A DNA stretch of 62,834 bases, the filler included, from Perkinsus olseni (lineage: Eukaryota): NCBI GenBank assembly GCA_013115125.1. It is 16 parts of 16 records of this genome, joined end to end, with 100 filler letters (N's around TTAATTAATTAA, not from the genome) between each part and the next. Parts side by side here need not be neighbours in the genome. Positions count along the whole stretch, not along the records: positions 43,498 to 47,291 come from JABANN010001349.1; 15 more parts are not named here. The stretch is one strand, 5' to 3'. The notes below the pieces were generated by a model. It did no database searches, was not told the origin of the DNA, and was given only the letters and a program-made list of their open reading frames with translations. A program made the translations under genes and the position numbers. This document shows positions 39,655-50,533 of this stretch, one piece after another. Positions within the stretch are counted from its first letter, which is position 1. Each line of letters starts with the position of its first letter.

Positions 39655-40746
39655 GTGACTGCCTGTTTGGGTATGATTTGCATCGAAGCCAACTACAACA
39701 GCGTCCCTGCTTTCATTGTGGAGATGTTCGTTATCGTGTCTATTGGTAAGCTTGGTGCCCTCTACAGCAATATCGACTACGCCGGGACTGTGTTTGCATT
39801 CACGTGGATGCTTGTGGGTATTGTTCCTACGTTGGGCTCGGAGCCGACTGAGAGCGATATGATAACCTGGGCACTGTGGCGTCTGTTGATGACTCTGATT
39901 GGTACCCTCGGCAATATGGTCGTCGCCACGTTCGTATTCCCGACGTTCGCCTTCGAGAAGTTGAACGGTGAGACGGCTCACGAGCTTATGGCCCAGTCTC
40001 AGTTGGTGTCGATGGCGGTCGAGCAGCTCTGTGCTGTAGAGAAGGGTCCATCGGTGAACCCTGATGACAAACGCATAGAAAGCGGTGATGAGTTCTTCAA
40101 ATCTAGTGATTACCGATACCAGCTCCTACCTGACGCCAAAGCTGAGGGGCTTGTTCTGAACAAGACCGCCTTCATTGATGAAACCACACGCGCAGTTATA
40201 GGATCCCAGTACGATATTGATATGATGGGCCGTTCTGCCATGGTGGCGTTTACCAACATCGCCGATTGCACGCGCCAGATCGCCGACCCGACGATTTTTC
40301 TGTTACTGGACCCTCTACGTGAGAGCCTTCATAAAGTGGCGGTAGCATTGAATGATTCATCGTCTAAGATGGCGCTGAAGATACTTGACCAAAGCAAGAG
40401 AGGGCATAAGGATAGCGGCTCCTTTGAGCTTGCTGATGACAGTAGCCAGGTCAACGTCGAGATGCAGCGGGCCTTGGATATCTTCGTCGCCAGGAGAGAA
40501 GTCATCCTCTCGGGCGAGAAGAAGAATCTAGAGAACTGGGCCAGTGCGATTCAGGGCGGCTTCTACGGTCTCTTCCATTCACTGTACACGCTGCGTGTGT
40601 TTGTCGACGAGTGGTTTCACATGGAGACTAGGATCCTGAATCTTAAGCCCGCTACCCGCAGGTCTCGTGCACTCACTGGTGCCCCGCAGGAGTTGGTCCG
40701 TGATATCTCTAAGGCTACTCGACATGGTTCGAGAGATAAGCTCTAA
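39655..40746 (+). CDS. ALMT/FUSC (aromatic acid exporter superfamily) transporter, 3' part
   Basis: TM helices ..YAGTVFAFTW..ALWRLLMTLIG..FVFP..A.EKL followed by a helical C-terminal domain; aligns with 42808-43397. Confidence 0.7.
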   Translation: MTACLGMICIEANYNSVPAFIVEMFVIVSIGKLGALYSNIDYAGTVFAFTWMLVGIVPTLGSEPTESDMITWALWRLLMTLIGTLGNMVVATFVFPTFAFEKLNGETAHELMAQSQLVSMAVEQLCAVEKGPSVNPDDKRIESGDEFFKSSDYRYQLLPDAKAEGLVLNKTAFIDETTRAVIGSQYDIDMMGRSAMVAFTNIADCTRQIADPTIFLLLDPLRESLHKVAVALNDSSSKMALKILDQSKRGHKDSGSFELADDSSQVNVEMQRALDIFVARREVILSGEKKNLENWASAIQGGFYGLFHSLYTLRVFVDEWFHMETRILNLKPATRRSRALTGAPQELVRDISKATRHGSRDKL

Positions 40747-43397: not shown

Positions 43398-43711
43398 NNN
43401 NNNNNNNNNNNNNNNNNNNNNNNNNNNNNNNNNNNNNNNNNTTAATTAATTAANNNNNNNNNNNNNNNNNNNNNNNNNNNNNNNNNNNNNNNNNNNNGTA
43501 TCCAGATTACCCGAGCTCCCACTGAGAGCCTGTCAGATATTCCAAGCTTCGGATATCAGCGCAGCATCCCATAGAAACTGCGGTGATGTCCGTTCCCGTC
43601 CAGTGTCAGGTCCTGCCTGCTAAGGCCACCCCCTACATTAATTGACAACCCTGCGAGGACAGATTCCTACATGAGACTAAGACATAGGCACACACATCGA
43701 TAAGAGAACCG

Positions 43712-45016
43712 CTACACTTCCTCTGACTCAGAGTCACTCTCTTCGAGGAGGGACATGAAAGTGCTTGATGCCAACTTCTGTACCTCCGCCAGATCCACAT
43801 AGACACTGGCGGGGACTCTACTTCTCCACGATCCCAGGGCGCAGATCTGTTGGAACGACGACCCGCTCTTCGCCAAGTCCGAGGCTGCACCCCGTCTCAG
43901 AGCGTGGCTTCCGAAACTCTCGGCGTCACCGACTCCAATGCCGGAGAGAGTCGAACGGAGTATGAAGAGGAAGGCTCTGTAAGACAGTAAAGGAAACAGC
44001 GGGTCACCATCGAGCAGTGACGAGTCTCTTCGCTCGAGAAGGGCCTTAGCTGCCTCCACAGGACAAGTCAAGGAGTCCGTCTTACAGCAACAGCTTCGCA
44101 CTTGTTTGTCGCCTGCGGGTAAATTCTTCCGTCTCGGAAGTACCAGGGTAACTTCCTTAGCCGAGTCGTTCACGATTAACTGCCCAACTGAAGCCACCAG
44201 GAGCTCCGAAGGGATCCGTAACAGGAAGTGATAGCCCATTATCGCCGCCAAAGAAAAGTCGATGAGCCCTCTACCGATCGCCCGCTTAACCATGTTTCTG
44301 AGCATCTGTATACTAACTCTGGGCTTCTCGGCAAGAGTCCTCGGCGGATTTCGCGACAAGCCCTGAGCCGTTTGACGAACCGCTATGGTGTCCCACTTCT
44401 TGCTCAGGTCTAGCCACTCGTGCCACTTCCTTAGGTGAGTTAAATAGCACTTTGCCGTGTCTTGATTACGGAAGGTCGATAGCCATAAGCAAACCAAGTC
44501 CTCGCGTGCTGGAAGCACGGCGTTACTTTCGGAAGAGCAGCCTTTGGAGAGGTCGAGCGCCGTGACAGCGAAGCGCATGTAGCACCGCAAACCCGAAGCG
44601 TACTGTCTTAGAGAGCTCTGGGAGACACATTTATATCTCAGTGAACCTACTGCGTCGGCTAGTCCTCCCAGAACGGATGCCGCCCCTTTCGACGACGCCT
44701 GCGTTTTCATCCAGCCTGGTACCTGCCTCGGCTGGAGCCCCTCGGCTTCGAGCGACGTGCGTGACGTGGATCTACTCTGCAAGCGCGTGGCTGTTGATAT
44801 CAGCAACTCCCAGATGGGTCCGCGAAGCGAACCGGAGTTGGCTCGAGCTACGAACATCCTCAGTAGATCTGCATGCCCGGTTGTGACGACAGTCTGGATA
44901 TCGTCGTCGGAGACTTCAGATCCCACTTCTTCCCAGGTTAGGAACCCCGACTTGAGGAGCCATGTGCATATCTCTTGAGCCGCAACCGACGGTTCCAGAG
45001 GAGCTTGGTCGGCCAT
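43712..45016 (-). CDS. Tyrosine recombinase of the retrotransposon
   Basis: First ATG 45016 (MADQAP); SSLRQYASGLRCYMRF binding domain; catalytic R (HFLLRIPSEL), K (RRKN), HxxR (GSHALRRGAA), W (LGSWRS), Y (VYVD). Confidence 0.9.
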   Translation of the reverse strand: MADQAPLEPSVAAQEICTWLLKSGFLTWEEVGSEVSDDDIQTVVTTGHADLLRMFVARANSGSLRGPIWELLISTATRLQSRSTSRTSLEAEGLQPRQVPGWMKTQASSKGAASVLGGLADAVGSLRYKCVSQSSLRQYASGLRCYMRFAVTALDLSKGCSSESNAVLPAREDLVCLWLSTFRNQDTAKCYLTHLRKWHEWLDLSKKWDTIAVRQTAQGLSRNPPRTLAEKPRVSIQMLRNMVKRAIGRGLIDFSLAAIMGYHFLLRIPSELLVASVGQLIVNDSAKEVTLVLPRRKNLPAGDKQVRSCCCKTDSLTCPVEAAKALLERRDSSLLDGDPLFPLLSYRAFLFILRSTLSGIGVGDAESFGSHALRRGAASDLAKSGSSFQQICALGSWRSRVPASVYVDLAEVQKLASSTFMSLLEESDSESEEV

Positions 45017-45256
45017 TGGGACGACACGTAACAGACGCAAACTAGGAAGAACACTGTCCACCCCGAAATAAGCAGCGAGAGCCCGGCGAGCTGGGGAAAA
45101 GGAGTCGCGGAAGAACTGAGCAGGTCCCCGATAAACCCCTTGCGCGAAGTGAGTTCGCGACGGAAGTACCTCGAGGAAGACCCTAGAGGACTGTCATTGG
45201 TTCTCAACGCAATGCGGGCCTCTCCCGAAACTGCGAAATCAACATGCTGGGGCACA

Positions 45257-47291
45257 CTAGTCCAAAGAAGGAAAACGGTGTTCCTTCCTGGAATACGACC
45301 TCACTATCTCATCGAAAATGCGCCTACTCGGCTTATCGGCTGGATTAAGCTCTGACGGCACTCGATCAATCCATATCTTGAGGTGGAATTTCTCGCAGGA
45401 ATGCCAGAACTTCGTGATCATGTGGTTCAAGTCCGCGTGCTTGGAGTACCCTTTCACTAAGGCTTGCTCAACGGCCACATTATCTACAAAAACTATAACC
45501 CAGCGCCCCGACACATATCTGCCGAAGGTCTCGATTGAAACCAGGGCGCCAAAAAGCTCAAGGGCAATGATCTGAGTCTTCCGGTCGAGGAGTCTGGCGT
45601 GAAACCACTCTGGTGCCTCACATGCTGCATAAATCGGTCGAACAAAGTCCTTAGCGCTAGCCACCGCGCCGATACCGCCCGCTGATGTTGCATCAGAGTA
45701 AATGCAAGCCTGGCGCACTGAAGAAATGTCTGATTCTTCCATGAGTGAGATGTGCCGGACAGCCTCGGCCCCCCGCAGCATCTCCTTTAGGCGCGTCAAC
45801 GCAGTAACAGCGAACGGACGATTCGTTGAGAGCTTCTGGACGTCGGGTCGGTGTATGTGACTCATTACCTCCCGTAGGTAAGGCCTGCACGCGTTGGATG
45901 GTAGAACCGTAGATGCGAATAAGAGCCTGCCGGCCAGCTTCGCAGCCGCCGAAGATGAGAGTCTATCTTCGGAGAGAGCCTCCTGAATCTTGTCGATGAT
46001 CTTGGCCTTCTTCTGCTCGGGTAGTGATAGGTGCAGACTGCCTCCAGAAGTCGCTATGCCGAGACCTAGGACGGATAGATCCGACGTGGGTCCGACGCAC
46101 TTTGGCTCCTTCAATCTCCAACCAAGGATAACGTGAAGCCACCGCCAGGCCTCATAGCCAGAGTCAACAGAGGATGCGCGTTCGGGGGCGAAGTAATCGT
46201 CAAGAAAGTTTATCAAGATCAGCGCCAGCAGTATCCTGCCCAGATGCGCCAGGGCCTGGGATACTCTACAGTAGTTAATGACTGAAGACGATGCGCCGAA
46301 AGGCTGTGCCACATGAAAGAAGGCCGAGGCTTCACCAGAAGACGGATCCCGAAGTAGGACGACAGTTACCTGAGCACGAGCAGCCTACAGAGCGGGAGCT
46401 CCCGAGCCGGACCCCAGAGCGACGGGGCTCACCTTGTGCGACTCACAGTCGCACGGAACCTGCCTATATGCAGCTGCATGGTCAGACTTCCACCATCTGA
46501 TGTCGGCGGACCCTATTGTCCTCGCATATTCCCGTGCCACGGCTACGGCCGCTTCCGGAGTAGGCAAAGAAACTTTATTCAGGAATATCATTGTGCGGTT
46601 TACGTTCGATCTCTTGAAATCGTCACAAGGACGAACTTTATCGGTTTGTACTACCGGAAAGCGGGGACTGGCCACAAAACCGCCTTCGAAGAGAGTGTCC
46701 AGTTTCCCAACCGGAATGGGGCCAATCATTGTCTTGGCCTCGGTCTCCTCAATCGCGCTCTTCCAAAGAGTCTCATCCCACTCGGATGGGTTGCCCTCCA
46801 GCTTCCTTGCCATCTTCCTCGCCAAGTCTGGACCCGCATCCAACAACTCTCCAAGGTCCATAACACTGCGCTTATTCAGCTTCCCCCGATTCCGTCTGAA
46901 AATCGACTCAGGAACCTCGAAGGTCCCTGTCAGGGGCAATCCGTTCTGCAGTTCCTCCGCGAGCGACGCGTCGGGGTAGCCCGTGGCCTCCAGCATCTCT
47001 TTAAATAGAGGGAGATTTAACTTTCCTGCCACAGCTCTCACCTCCTCCGGCATGCTGCGTACTGAGTCCTCTGTAGCCGACTCCAGCAGCTTCCGGCGGG
47101 TTTCCCAGAACTTCATGACCTCCAAACGCGCCTTTACAAGCACTTCTGGTCCCAGTCTTTCCTGTGCTGCGATAGCCGCTCGTACCGTGTCAGGTAGTCC
47201 CGGAGCTTCCTTGAGAGGGTGTGCCATGTCGCAGGAAACCGAAAGATGTTCCTCTGGCGAGGACGCCTTGATGGGCTTCCCTAAGTCTCCG
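45257..47291 (-). CDS. Reverse transcriptase-RNase H, two exons (47291-46433 and 46369-45257), 5' partial
   Basis: SPRFPVVQTDKVRPCDDFKRSNVN, KSDHAAAYRQVP, QPFGASSSV, FLDD; RNase H YSDA..IIALELFGA..VDN..RVPSELNPADKPSR. The frame is open up to the gap. Confidence 0.88.
46370..46432 (-). other. Predicted 63-nt spliceosomal intron within the RT
   Basis: AAG|GTGAGC...CTGTAGGCTGCTCGTGCTCAG|GTA; contains the only in-frame stop (TAG 46385-46387). Confidence 0.75.
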
Positions 47292-47899
47292 NNNNNNNNN
47301 NNNNNNNNNNNNNNNNNNNNNNNNNNNNNNNNNNNTTAATTAATTAANNNNNNNNNNNNNNNNNNNNNNNNNNNNNNNNNNNNNNNNNNNNCATGTTTGT
47401 CTCGCCTTCATTCTCGAAAATGACGTCACCGAGATCAGGATGGCCATAATCGACACCTGAAAACGGAATGAAACGACTAGCACAAACTTAGTGTTTGCTG
47501 GGTGCCGACCGGAGTCAATGAGAGCGACTGTAACGGGTGAGCTGTCATCTTGTTCACATCCCGTGTCCGGGTCGGCCAAACGATCATCTACTATCCGCTT
47601 GACGCGCATGTCGTCGAGAGCCCACTGCTGTCCGAAGTATCTGAAGAGTCGGATGCATACCGGTGGGTCACGAAGTGGCTTACGTATCATCCGGCGGGGA
47701 CAAAGAGAGAGCTCGTCGGCTCTGAGCTGCCAACTCAATCGGATAATCTTCCTCGGCTACGATGCCCATCATCCTCATTTGCTGCACGAAAGGGGAACTG
47801 AACAACAGATAAACGCTGGAAGGTGACTTTCTACCGGTGGGGAATGGCGGGACGGACTTACGGGTCGTTCGTGCCAACAATCTCGATCACACCAATCTG

Positions 47900-48587
47900 C
47901 AACATCATCAGATGATACATCGTCGCTGTTAAGTTAACCGGAATAGACAGATTCGAGTCCACATCGAAGTACGGAACCGTGGTCAGACTGACATAGGAGA
48001 CACCGCGTCATACGAACGAGGAACGGCAGCAGCCGGGGGCTTACTCGAAGATGATGCGGCATTTGTTAGCAGCCGCAACTCCTGTATTGTTGGGGCCCTG
48101 AAACAGACAGTCAGGACGATACTGAAGGGGAATCATCAATCACCTGCCCATATGAGCCAGCTTGACCAACACGAGTTGCCCTGTCAACTAGCGGATGAAT
48201 CTGAGAAGTGAACGCCGTGAAGGAGCAGCTCAAGGGGTCGCCCTTAACACTTGTGGTGAATCGAAAACCTGATGGGCCTTCAAGTATCTTGGAATATCAT
48301 CGAAATCAATGATCTCGCTGCCGGTGCCAGAGTTCTCGATGGTGAAATTGAAACACTTGACTGGCTTGCTCGAGTTGGCTCGCGAATAATACCTGAAGGA
48401 GAGCAACGCTTCGATATCGTCCTGTAGGTCACAAGAGGCACGCTCACATCTCGATGTCTATTGGGCTTGGGGTTGAACTGATGAATTGGGACACAGATAG
48501 GTGTCTGCCTGACGATGCGTCAGTGAGACAGGACAAGGCGACAATGCATAGAACGGCGATGGCAGCGAAGTTCGTAAACTCCGGCAT
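47900..48587 (-). CDS. Hypothetical secreted protein, multi-exon, 3' end uncertain
   Basis: ATG 48587 MPEFTNFAAIAVLCIVALSCLTDA signal peptide; gtgagc..ctacag intron near 48422-48447. Confidence 0.3.
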
Positions 48588-48880
48588 TCCGGATGGAGGC
48601 GAGTAAAGCTACATCACACAAAGTTCATCAATGCTTGCCAGCACATAGCAGCTAAGAGGGATCATTTCTCATCCTTTCAGGGCGGAGCTTCATTTTCATG
48701 CGCAACGGCATCTATCAGTTACATTCGCACTACGAATAAGATATTTGGAAGATATGCCGGGCTAGCGCACTTTCAAGTGTCGGCTTGTCTTATCCTGTTG
48801 ATACTACTGCGAAGCTAACGATGTGTGGCTTATGAGTGAAAAGACTCTGAGCACGTCATAGTTTTTAATTCACCAAATTT

Positions 48881-50533
48881 ATGGCTAATCACTCTGCGGC
48901 ATTCCTGCTCTCTGTCACCGCTAGTATAGCGCTCGTCAGTGGCAATACTACCGCCTGCGATGCTGAATGCGCCCTGACTTTCCCTGGCTCTTACTGCAAG
49001 TACTGGCAGTCCCCAAGTGTGTGCTTCGGCTCCAATATTCGATGCTCTTGCGACACCGCCTTCCTCACGGCCTCTCCCGTTCAATGTGATGCTGGGTGTG
49101 CCGCTGATACACCCGGGTCTTACTGCAAGTACTGGAAGTCTCCCAGTGTTTGCCACATCTCGAACATTCCGTGCTCCTGTGATCAGTCCACAACGCAAGG
49201 GCCGATCATCACTACTACAGGAACTACTAATCTGGTAACAAGCGTGGGGACCATACCAACCATTGCGCCGACAAGTACTGTTGCAGCCACTCGCACAGCG
49301 CGATCGACTACGGTCATAACAACTGGTACAGCACCAACGACCACCGTTGTGACTGCTAGTAGAGCTCCATCGACCACCGTTGTGACTACAAGCGCAGCAT
49401 CATCGACTACTGCGGCGACTACGGCAGTACAATCGACTGTTGTTATAACGACGAGTACATCATCATCGACTACTGTTGTGACTGCCAGTACAGCACCATC
49501 GACTACTGTTGTGACCGCTAGTACAGCACCATCGACTACTGCTGTTACTACTAGTACAGCACCATCGACTACTGCTGTTACTACTAGTACAGCTCGATCG
49601 AACGCCGTTGTGACTACAAGCGCAGCATCATCGACTACTGCGGTACCATCGACTACCTTTGTGACCACTGGCGAAGCATCATCGACTACTGCAGTACCAT
49701 CAACTACCGTTGTGACCACTGGTGAAGCATCATCGACTACTGCAGTACCATCGAGTACCGGTGTGACCACTGGTGAAGCATCATCGACTGCTGCATCGAC
49801 TACTGCAGTACCATCAACTACCGTTGTGACCACTGGTGAAGCATCATCGACTACTGTTGTGACTACTAGTACAGCGCCATCGACTACCGTTGTGACTAGG
49901 ACAGCGCCATTGACTACTGCAGTACAGTCGACTACTGTCATAACGACTGGTAGGGCACCGTCGACCGCGTTTGTGACTACTATTACTGCACAGTCAACCA
50001 CTGTGATTACTGCAGTACCATCGACAACTGTTGTAACGACAAGTACAGCATCGTCGACTACCGTCCTGTTCGCTAATTCATCACCATCGCCCACCGCGGT
50101 GTCTACTACTCGATTAGAGGAAAGCACATCGGCGGCGAGTAGTACAGACAGCTTGATTGAAACGTCGAGTGCCAAGACCCCTCCCTCGCTAACAACGAAG
50201 GTATTCACTTCTGTGGCTGGTTCCCCAACATCCACAACTATGAGCAACACTCCTGTTTCCACTGGCAGTATGGTATTTACCACCAGTTCATCAACTACTG
50301 TCACCTCACCACGGCTCATCACCGGGTTGATACAGGTGAGTACATCCGAAATAGATCCGTCTTTGCGTGAAGACAAAGGTGCGACGCCTGTGACTTCAAC
50401 GACAGTCGAGCTGCAGCCTCCTGCTGTAACCTCATTTGTGTTCCCTGCGACGAGCACGCTGCAGAATTCTGAAACTGCCGCGACGAGAACGGCGACCGGC
50501 ACCTTTACTACCGTTAGTTCGACGACTAACTAG
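48881..50533 (+). CDS. Secreted mucin-like protein with two N-terminal 6-Cys repeats and a long Thr/Ser-rich tail
   Basis: Signal peptide; two copies of CDAxCAxxxPGSYCKYWxSPSVCxxSNIxCSCD; about 440 aa of PSTTVVTT/ASSTTAV repeats. Confidence 0.85.
   Translation: MANHSAAFLLSVTASIALVSGNTTACDAECALTFPGSYCKYWQSPSVCFGSNIRCSCDTAFLTASPVQCDAGCAADTPGSYCKYWKSPSVCHISNIPCSCDQSTTQGPIITTTGTTNLVTSVGTIPTIAPTSTVAATRTARSTTVITTGTAPTTTVVTASRAPSTTVVTTSAASSTTAATTAVQSTVVITTSTSSSTTVVTASTAPSTTVVTASTAPSTTAVTTSTAPSTTAVTTSTARSNAVVTTSAASSTTAVPSTTFVTTGEASSTTAVPSTTVVTTGEASSTTAVPSSTGVTTGEASSTAASTTAVPSTTVVTTGEASSTTVVTTSTAPSTTVVTRTAPLTTAVQSTTVITTGRAPSTAFVTTITAQSTTVITAVPSTTVVTTSTASSTTVLFANSSPSPTAVSTTRLEESTSAASSTDSLIETSSAKTPPSLTTKVFTSVAGSPTSTTMSNTPVSTGSMVFTTSSSTTVTSPRLITGLIQVSTSEIDPSLREDKGATPVTSTTVELQPPAVTSFVFPATSTLQNSETAATRTATGTFTTVSSTTN

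Follow-up and report, generated by a model that had tools for sequence, protein, structure and literature searches.

How can an element that replicates through RNA carry, in the middle of its reverse transcriptase (RT), a segment with the ends of an intron and an in-frame stop codon? Retroelements are expected to lose introns at each passage through spliced RNA, and introns are rare in elements that copy through RNA. The question is raised by a putative tyrosine-recombinase retrotransposon of Perkinsus olseni, Perkinsus being a parasite of oysters and clams. The stretch of DNA analysed here (the window; 62,834 nucleotides (nt), assembly GCA_013115125.1) consists of 16 contigs of ~3.8-3.9 kb, arranged by descending size and joined by N44-TTAATTAATTAA-N44 linkers; features on the two sides of a linker have no physical linkage and the window is not a single locus. 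The retrotransposon fills one entire contig, at positions 43498-47291. Our analysis suggests, with a probability that we put at roughly 60%, that 63 nt within its RT are a real short GT-AG spliceosomal intron. Relative to the protein family as a whole the segment is inserted sequence, with GT and AG as its exact ends, in frame and stop-bearing, and its removal yields a collinear RT.

A stop-bearing segment in the reverse transcriptase frame

The RT and RNase H (RH) of the element share a minus-strand frame that runs from 47291 to 45257 and is open apart from a TAG at 46387-46385. The two open reading frames (ORFs) on either side of this codon, taken from stop to stop (46385..47335(-) and 45257..46384(-)), are in the same frame. 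The features of this region are the following, a slash marking a splice border:

46433..47291, minus strand: upstream exon, N-terminal part of RT to just past motif A (..KSDHAAAYRQVP..ESHK), from translation; homology with protein P0006 from residue 517
46370..46432, minus strand: candidate spliceosomal intron, 63 nt, phase 0; donor AAG/GTGAGC, acceptor GCTCAG/GTA; 71% G+C
46385..46387, minus strand: in-frame TAG, from translation; from the contig end to its natural stop the RT/RH frame has no other stop
46385..46432, minus strand: alternative in-frame intron of 48 nt with the same donor and the acceptor CTGTAG/; score 1692, against 1762 for the 63-nt pair
45257..46369, minus strand: downstream exon with RT motifs B (QPFGASSS) and C (FLDDY) and RNase H; stop TAG at 45259-45257

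Translation confirmed the position 46370..46432, the AAG/GTGAGC and GCTCAG/GTA borders, the shared frame and the single TAG, all of which had been described in an earlier note on this DNA. The GT..AG ends were found on the RT sense strand only. The upstream exon is open up to the 5' end of the contig, so the gag part is missing. Without the segment RT/RH comprises 655 codons and the recombinase frame that follows it comprises 493, and there is no further stop in either.

Comparison with related proteins provided the strongest evidence on the nature of the segment. The read-through protein was aligned by MAFFT with 27 homologs (25-54% identity), and in 27/27 of them a gap coincides exactly with the 21 codons of the segment, with well-aligned residues on both sides. 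With respect to P0006, the closest full-length homolog (651 aligned pairs, 45% identity), the segment is the sole RT/RH indel of more than two residues. There are 28 in-frame GT..AG pairs that would remove the TAG and keep the frame open. Among them the 63-nt pair reached the top summed score against 7 homologs (1762, as compared with 1701 for a 54-nt pair, 1692 for the 48-nt pair and 1605 for the retained segment), and its donor, AAG/GTGAG, is also the best of the 28. With the 48-nt alternative, whose acceptor was absent from the earlier note, 5 additional residues would stay in the protein. Finding GT..AG around a stop is in itself unremarkable; the fit of the 63-nt pair to the homology, as judged from these alignments, is not chance. 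For a random insertion, GT and AG are expected at the two borders in ~1/256 of cases, and GTGAG and CAG more rarely still. The homolog search returned no protein with the spliced junction and none from an ORF ending inside the intron, P0007 being the only shorter relative and none being longer. A metagenome scan for related loci yielded a single, distant locus (L001); its frame runs through the site without a break, but at 26% identity it is uninformative. A viral-contig scan for related loci yielded none.

The same data bear on the reading that the TAG is simply read through to give an RT with a 21-residue insert, to which we give hardly any credence. The segment has a length that is a multiple of three and a single stop, and retroviruses use UAG readthrough, but the insert would fall between RT motifs A and B, at a position where 0/27 homologs have residues, and no structure beyond chance was found within the segment. 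Moreover, TAG terminates both the RT/RH frame, whose end coincides with that of P0006, and the recombinase frame, and because it also ends these two other frames of the element it is a genuine stop there.

GC-rich hairpin potential had also been attributed to the segment. The palindrome and the GAGCC/GGCTC pair on which this was based are present, but the fold is no better than chance: the minimum free energy is -21.8 kcal/mol (z = +1.12), 181/200 dinucleotide shuffles fold at least as well, and a mononucleotide-shuffle control agrees that the fold is not significant. A hairpin as a meaningful structure was rejected, since shuffled sequences fold equally well or better.

The ends of the segment raise a further possibility, namely that the element was hit by a small intron-generating transposon, or introner, of which the 63 nt would be a copy. 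These ends pair over 5 bp (TGAGC/GCTCA) and are flanked by a 4-nt direct repeat, AGGT, and introner elements with inverted and direct repeats are described for Amoebophrya, a related parasite, in PMC7789003. The 5-bp repeat is, however, far below the 8-20 nt reported there for Amoebophrya, the 63-mer is not repeated in the 62.8-kb window (where only chance matches of <=14 nt were found) and the segment folds no better than its shuffles, which makes this origin very improbable.

Host introns, gene models and public contigs

As a yardstick for host introns we used published figures of the sister species P. marinus and not the genome from which the window comes, because the intron sets derived from the window were ambiguous or unreliable. 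A heuristic that joins ORFs led to 1757 ambiguous candidates and was set aside, a greedy intron chain on a subtilisin-like gene was unreliable, and Pfam searches with the first 150 of the 235 window ORFs (>=75 aa) gave matches in 2 only. According to Table 1 of PMC7789003, the introns of P. marinus measure 49 bp in the median and 124 bp on average, and 99.3% of them are GT-AG; the same source gives an intron G+C of 43.4%. The earlier note had called the size and signals of the segment host-like. Its 63 nt and GT-AG ends do fit P. marinus, whereas its composition does not, with 71% G+C as compared with 55% in the contig and 43.4% in P. marinus introns.

The subtilisin-like protease gene just mentioned is represented in the window by its 5' part, at 47392-48590 (-), with a signal peptide and several short candidate introns recognised by eye; a 53-nt GT..AG segment that splits ..VALIDSG and GVDYGHPDLG is the only firm split there. 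The window also contains a full-length U6 spliceosomal small nuclear RNA gene at 34316-34418 (-) (Rfam RF00026, 106.5 bits, E=9.3e-27).

The nearest proteins to the element are automatic 'hypothetical protein' models of P. olseni, which are locally almost identical to it and thus point to this species, or to one closely related to it, as the host. Three of them (P0002, P0003 and P0004), on contigs of 40, 43 and 164 kb, cover this region. An intron boundary was placed at the donor (P0004) or the acceptor (P0002, P0003) of the segment in 3/3 models. In P0004 an exon ends at the 63-nt donor and restarts just past the TAG, which corresponds to the 48-nt variant, and in P0002 and P0003 an exon begins at the 63-nt acceptor. 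These boundaries, drawn by automatic annotation, back the intron weakly. P0003 and P0004 differ from the window by a base change at 46367 and by an apparent extra base near 46330 (an apparent frameshift), and for this reason appear to represent copies that have diverged and partly decayed and still have the flanks of the segment in common. Additionally, public contigs (Logan) of four runs were compared, X1 being of unknown kind, X9 and X4 guessed to be RNA and X2 guessed to be DNA. The segment is identical, with zero differences, in contigs of the 4 runs, which belong to 4 studies and carry two organism labels.

Several of the observations made at this locus weigh against an intron, or against its having been carried through retrotransposition. 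Besides the high G+C, no clear branch-point motif was seen in the segment by eye. The exact 63-nt intron in the RT frame is predicted by 0/3 of the gene models, all of which are frame-scrambled, and the three contigs that bear them could, in a heterozygous or polyploid genome, be haplotigs or alleles of one locus. No spliced joint was found in the contigs of X1, X9, X4 and X2, all of which cross the segment unbroken; contigs discard rare variants and the RNA labels are guessed, so that this result is to be read as a dominant retained form with a spliced minority at most. Lastly, the contig of the element is without gag and without both termini, as it ends inside the element on each side, which bears on the competence of this copy.

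Part of this evidence also speaks for the main rival explanation, in which an ordinary insertion killed the RT of a now defective lineage, the GT..AG ends are coincidental and the copies were duplicated at the DNA level, are allelic or owe their mobility to intact relatives acting in trans. Behind this rival rank, in this order, the late gain of an intron by an immobile copy, an introner and stop readthrough. Only the retained form appears in 4/4 runs, the G+C of the segment is unlike that of published Perkinsus introns, and at least two related copies behind the P. olseni gene models look frameshifted, so decayed copies do exist. Such a lineage would nevertheless have to owe to chance the exact GT and AG at borders that were defined by homology (the ~1/256 given above, and less with GTGAG and CAG), and both of its long frames, of 655 and 493 codons, are without any other stop or any other indel of more than two residues. 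On balance we regard a dead lineage as unlikely, although it is the alternative that we take most seriously.

The element, its ends and its surroundings

The other features of the contig and its borders are the following:

43712..45016, minus strand: putative tyrosine recombinase ORF, from the first Met (MADQ..) to TAG; motifs LLRIPSE, SHALRRG and GSWRS..VYVD
45116..45304, minus strand: further in-frame GT..AG candidate of 189 nt that contains 3 in-frame stops; donor ATA/GTGAGG, acceptor CCTGCTCAG/TTC; predicted only
43498..43570, no strand: 3' contig end with two sequence contexts and ~2x the depth of the body (run X2, 757-839 vs 378 in the body)
47292..47391, no strand: assembly linker (N44, TTAATTAATTAA, N44) that closes the contig of the element; non-biological

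Pfam gave no match for the RT protein of the window itself, and its assignment was obtained through its family. An exhaustive search collected 4703 proteins at E<=0.001, 166 of them at E<=1e-30. In the aligned family members Pfam recognised RVT_1 in 12/28 and RT_RNaseH in 3/28, and the family profile matched the Ty3 RT/RNase H (4ol8, E=2.5e-5) in an alignment that pairs motifs A (D..AYRQ.P), B (PFG) and C (Y.DD) and has the same motif A-to-B spacing. The recombinase frame, with its first Met at 45016 and its stop at 43714-43712, gave Phage_integrase in Pfam at E=0.002 and 18.4 bits, which is under the 27.1 cut-off, and no match to PDB sequences. Its Atlas look-alikes were 'Recombinase cre' (0.95) and a cluster with PF00589 in 27% of members, and R, HxxR, W and Y motifs were read by eye as catalytic. 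Related gene models have gag upstream.

All these data suggest that the element is a tyrosine-recombinase retrotransposon with an Ngaro-like gene order (RT/RH, then recombinase) and with termini that would lie outside the contig. Elements of the DIRS1-like superfamily have a methyltransferase-like domain after RNase H, and the termini of the DIRS order consist of inverted repeats with an internal complementary region or of split direct repeats. Pfam found no methyltransferase in either frame, and RNase H ends ~25 codons before the stop. Since this domain was not found after RNase H we did not file the element as DIRS1-like, and the label 'DIRS-type' used previously is too specific. Furthermore, the description of the element as otherwise intact applies only to the RT/RH and recombinase frames, as gag and the termini are outside the contig, which holds most of the RT/RNase H frame, the 493-codon recombinase frame and 214 nt of 3' sequence. 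Public contigs of run X1 extend the element by at least 2349 nt past 47291. At the other end there is a branching of public contigs at 43541-43570, where X2 and X9 have loose ends, and a terminal repeat possibly starts at ~43570. No other copies of the element were found in the window by blastn or tblastn.

The ends of the contig are relevant to another explanation, in which the intron was gained after the immobilisation of one resident, possibly domesticated, copy; the copies would then be haplotypes, and the segment would be spliced but uninformative on retrotransposition. The AAG/GT junction is a classic proto-splice site, with AGGT at both borders. Nevertheless, the doubled depth and the branching at the 3' end are what a repeat bounded by terminal repeats would show, the 3.8-kb contig ends in an assembly break on either side, the gag, RT/RH and recombinase frames are all kept, and gene models lie on three contigs (40, 43 and 164 kb). 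Taken together, these features make a late gain by a single immobile copy improbable in our view.

Between the RT/RH and recombinase frames sits a second candidate intron of 189 nt, which gene model P0003 takes to be an intron. On its sense strand the contig has 3 copies of the heptamer TGCTCAG where 0.26 would be expected, and 2/3 of these copies are the candidate acceptors of the 63-nt and 189-nt segments. The tail of RT/RH that lies within the 189 nt is conserved in P0006 (YSRK..FPS), and for this reason the segment, if spliced at all, would be spliced alternatively. Its removal would fuse RT/RH to the recombinase frame; the evidence for this is weak and we offer it as a lead and not as a finding.

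A different type of retroelement is present elsewhere in the window. A BEL/Pao-type long terminal repeat (LTR) retroelement at 27809-31639 (-) has an uninterrupted 1277-codon frame that fills its whole contig and matches zf-CCHC, RVT_1 and the Pao retrotransposon peptidase in Pfam, in contrast to the interrupted element studied here. In addition, a repetitive stretch shows long overlapping frames on both strands, 49186-50529 (-) and 48869-50530 (+), the minus frame containing many VVDG(A/T)(A/V)(L/V)VVTT-like units, and a 372-codon frame at 39628-40743 (+) matches the aluminium-activated malate transporter family (ALMT, E=4.3e-8).

Splicing as a possible control of the polymerase

If the 63 nt are an intron, the host spliceosome would remove them from part of the transcripts, and only the spliced transcripts would encode a complete RT/RNase H. 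Translation of unspliced RNA would stop at the TAG and give a product truncated after RT motif A. The unspliced RNA would also be the form that is reverse-transcribed, because the DNA copies still carry the segment. As passage through spliced RNA removes introns, an intron in the RT core would mark which RNA pool is copied and which is translated, and inefficient splicing would set the amount of polymerase relative to upstream products. By analogy with known systems, the proposal of the earlier note that splicing acts as a switch between translated and copied RNA is plausible.

This idea can be taken a step further, to a Perkinsus lineage of the element that carries an obligatory intron of host type through RNA-mediated replication, with splicing setting the Gag-to-Pol ratio and the 189 nt at 45304-45116 perhaps gating the fusion of RT/RH and recombinase. 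We consider this extension possible but rather less than an even bet. Under it, a spliced minority would make polymerase, the unspliced majority would serve both as template and as messenger of the truncated upstream product, and the Gag-to-Pol ratio would be controlled by splicing efficiency instead of frameshifting or readthrough. In retroviruses it is frameshifting or readthrough that balances the polymerase against upstream products.

The closest precedents appear to be the intron of Ogre and the intron-retaining Penelope-like elements. Ogre, a Ty3/gypsy LTR retrotransposon of legumes, is spliced between ORFs, as stated in PMC3735527 citing Steinbauerova et al. 2008. As described there, and as we read the Perkinsus element, a stop-bearing intron interrupts the polyprotein coding region and persists in genomic copies; part of the Ogre transcripts are spliced, which restores the coding region, and the same logic is what we propose for the Perkinsus element. 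Ogre differs in being a plant LTR element with a DDE integrase and an intron between ORFs, whereas the Perkinsus candidate, of only 63 nt, separates motifs A and B in the core of the RT, and the element that bears it comes from an alveolate and belongs to the tyrosine-recombinase type. Furthermore, splicing has been experimentally shown for Ogre, while the Perkinsus segment is a candidate intron. Penelope-like elements, as the Perkinsus element may do, keep introns after retrotransposition according to PMC8557442, but in that source most of the introns described precede the ORF or lie in the 5' UTR, and their retention is tied to the unusual GIY-YIG/TPRT mechanism. These elements also differ in having a telomerase-like RT and no tyrosine recombinase. 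In copia, BARE and retroviruses alternative splicing likewise separates RNA pools and sets protein ratios (PMC3735527); in the cases given there the spliced RNA has lost pol or gained a stop and yields only Gag, whereas in the Perkinsus element splicing would be needed for Pol.

Among its own relatives, the Perkinsus element shares with Ngaro and other DIRS-order elements the order of an RT/RNase H and, after it, a putative tyrosine recombinase ORF. PMC3266345 lists a DIRS1-like element in Perkinsus marinus, and dinoflagellates, which are related to Perkinsus, carry DIRS-type elements according to PMC5890265, where the genes of the dinoflagellate SymbioDIRS are described as intronless, unlike what we propose for the Perkinsus element. 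The word 'intron' has 0 occurrences in the two DIRS/Ngaro surveys PMC3783388 and PMC3266345. In a literature search that barely covered subscription journals, and that is accordingly weak evidence, we came across no tyrosine-recombinase retrotransposon for which a natural spliceosomal intron had been reported. A retroelement polymerase gated by an intron is thus already known in kind, and what would be new here, if confirmed, is its presence in a tyrosine-recombinase element of an alveolate.

The frame-scrambled automatic models over this element indicate that such elements need intron-aware curation. If splicing is confirmed, the principle of a splicing-gated polymerase, known from Ogre in plants, would be extended to tyrosine-recombinase elements and to alveolates, and the ratio of spliced to unspliced RNA would offer a simple measure of how retroelements are regulated in a parasite of molluscs whose introns are very short.

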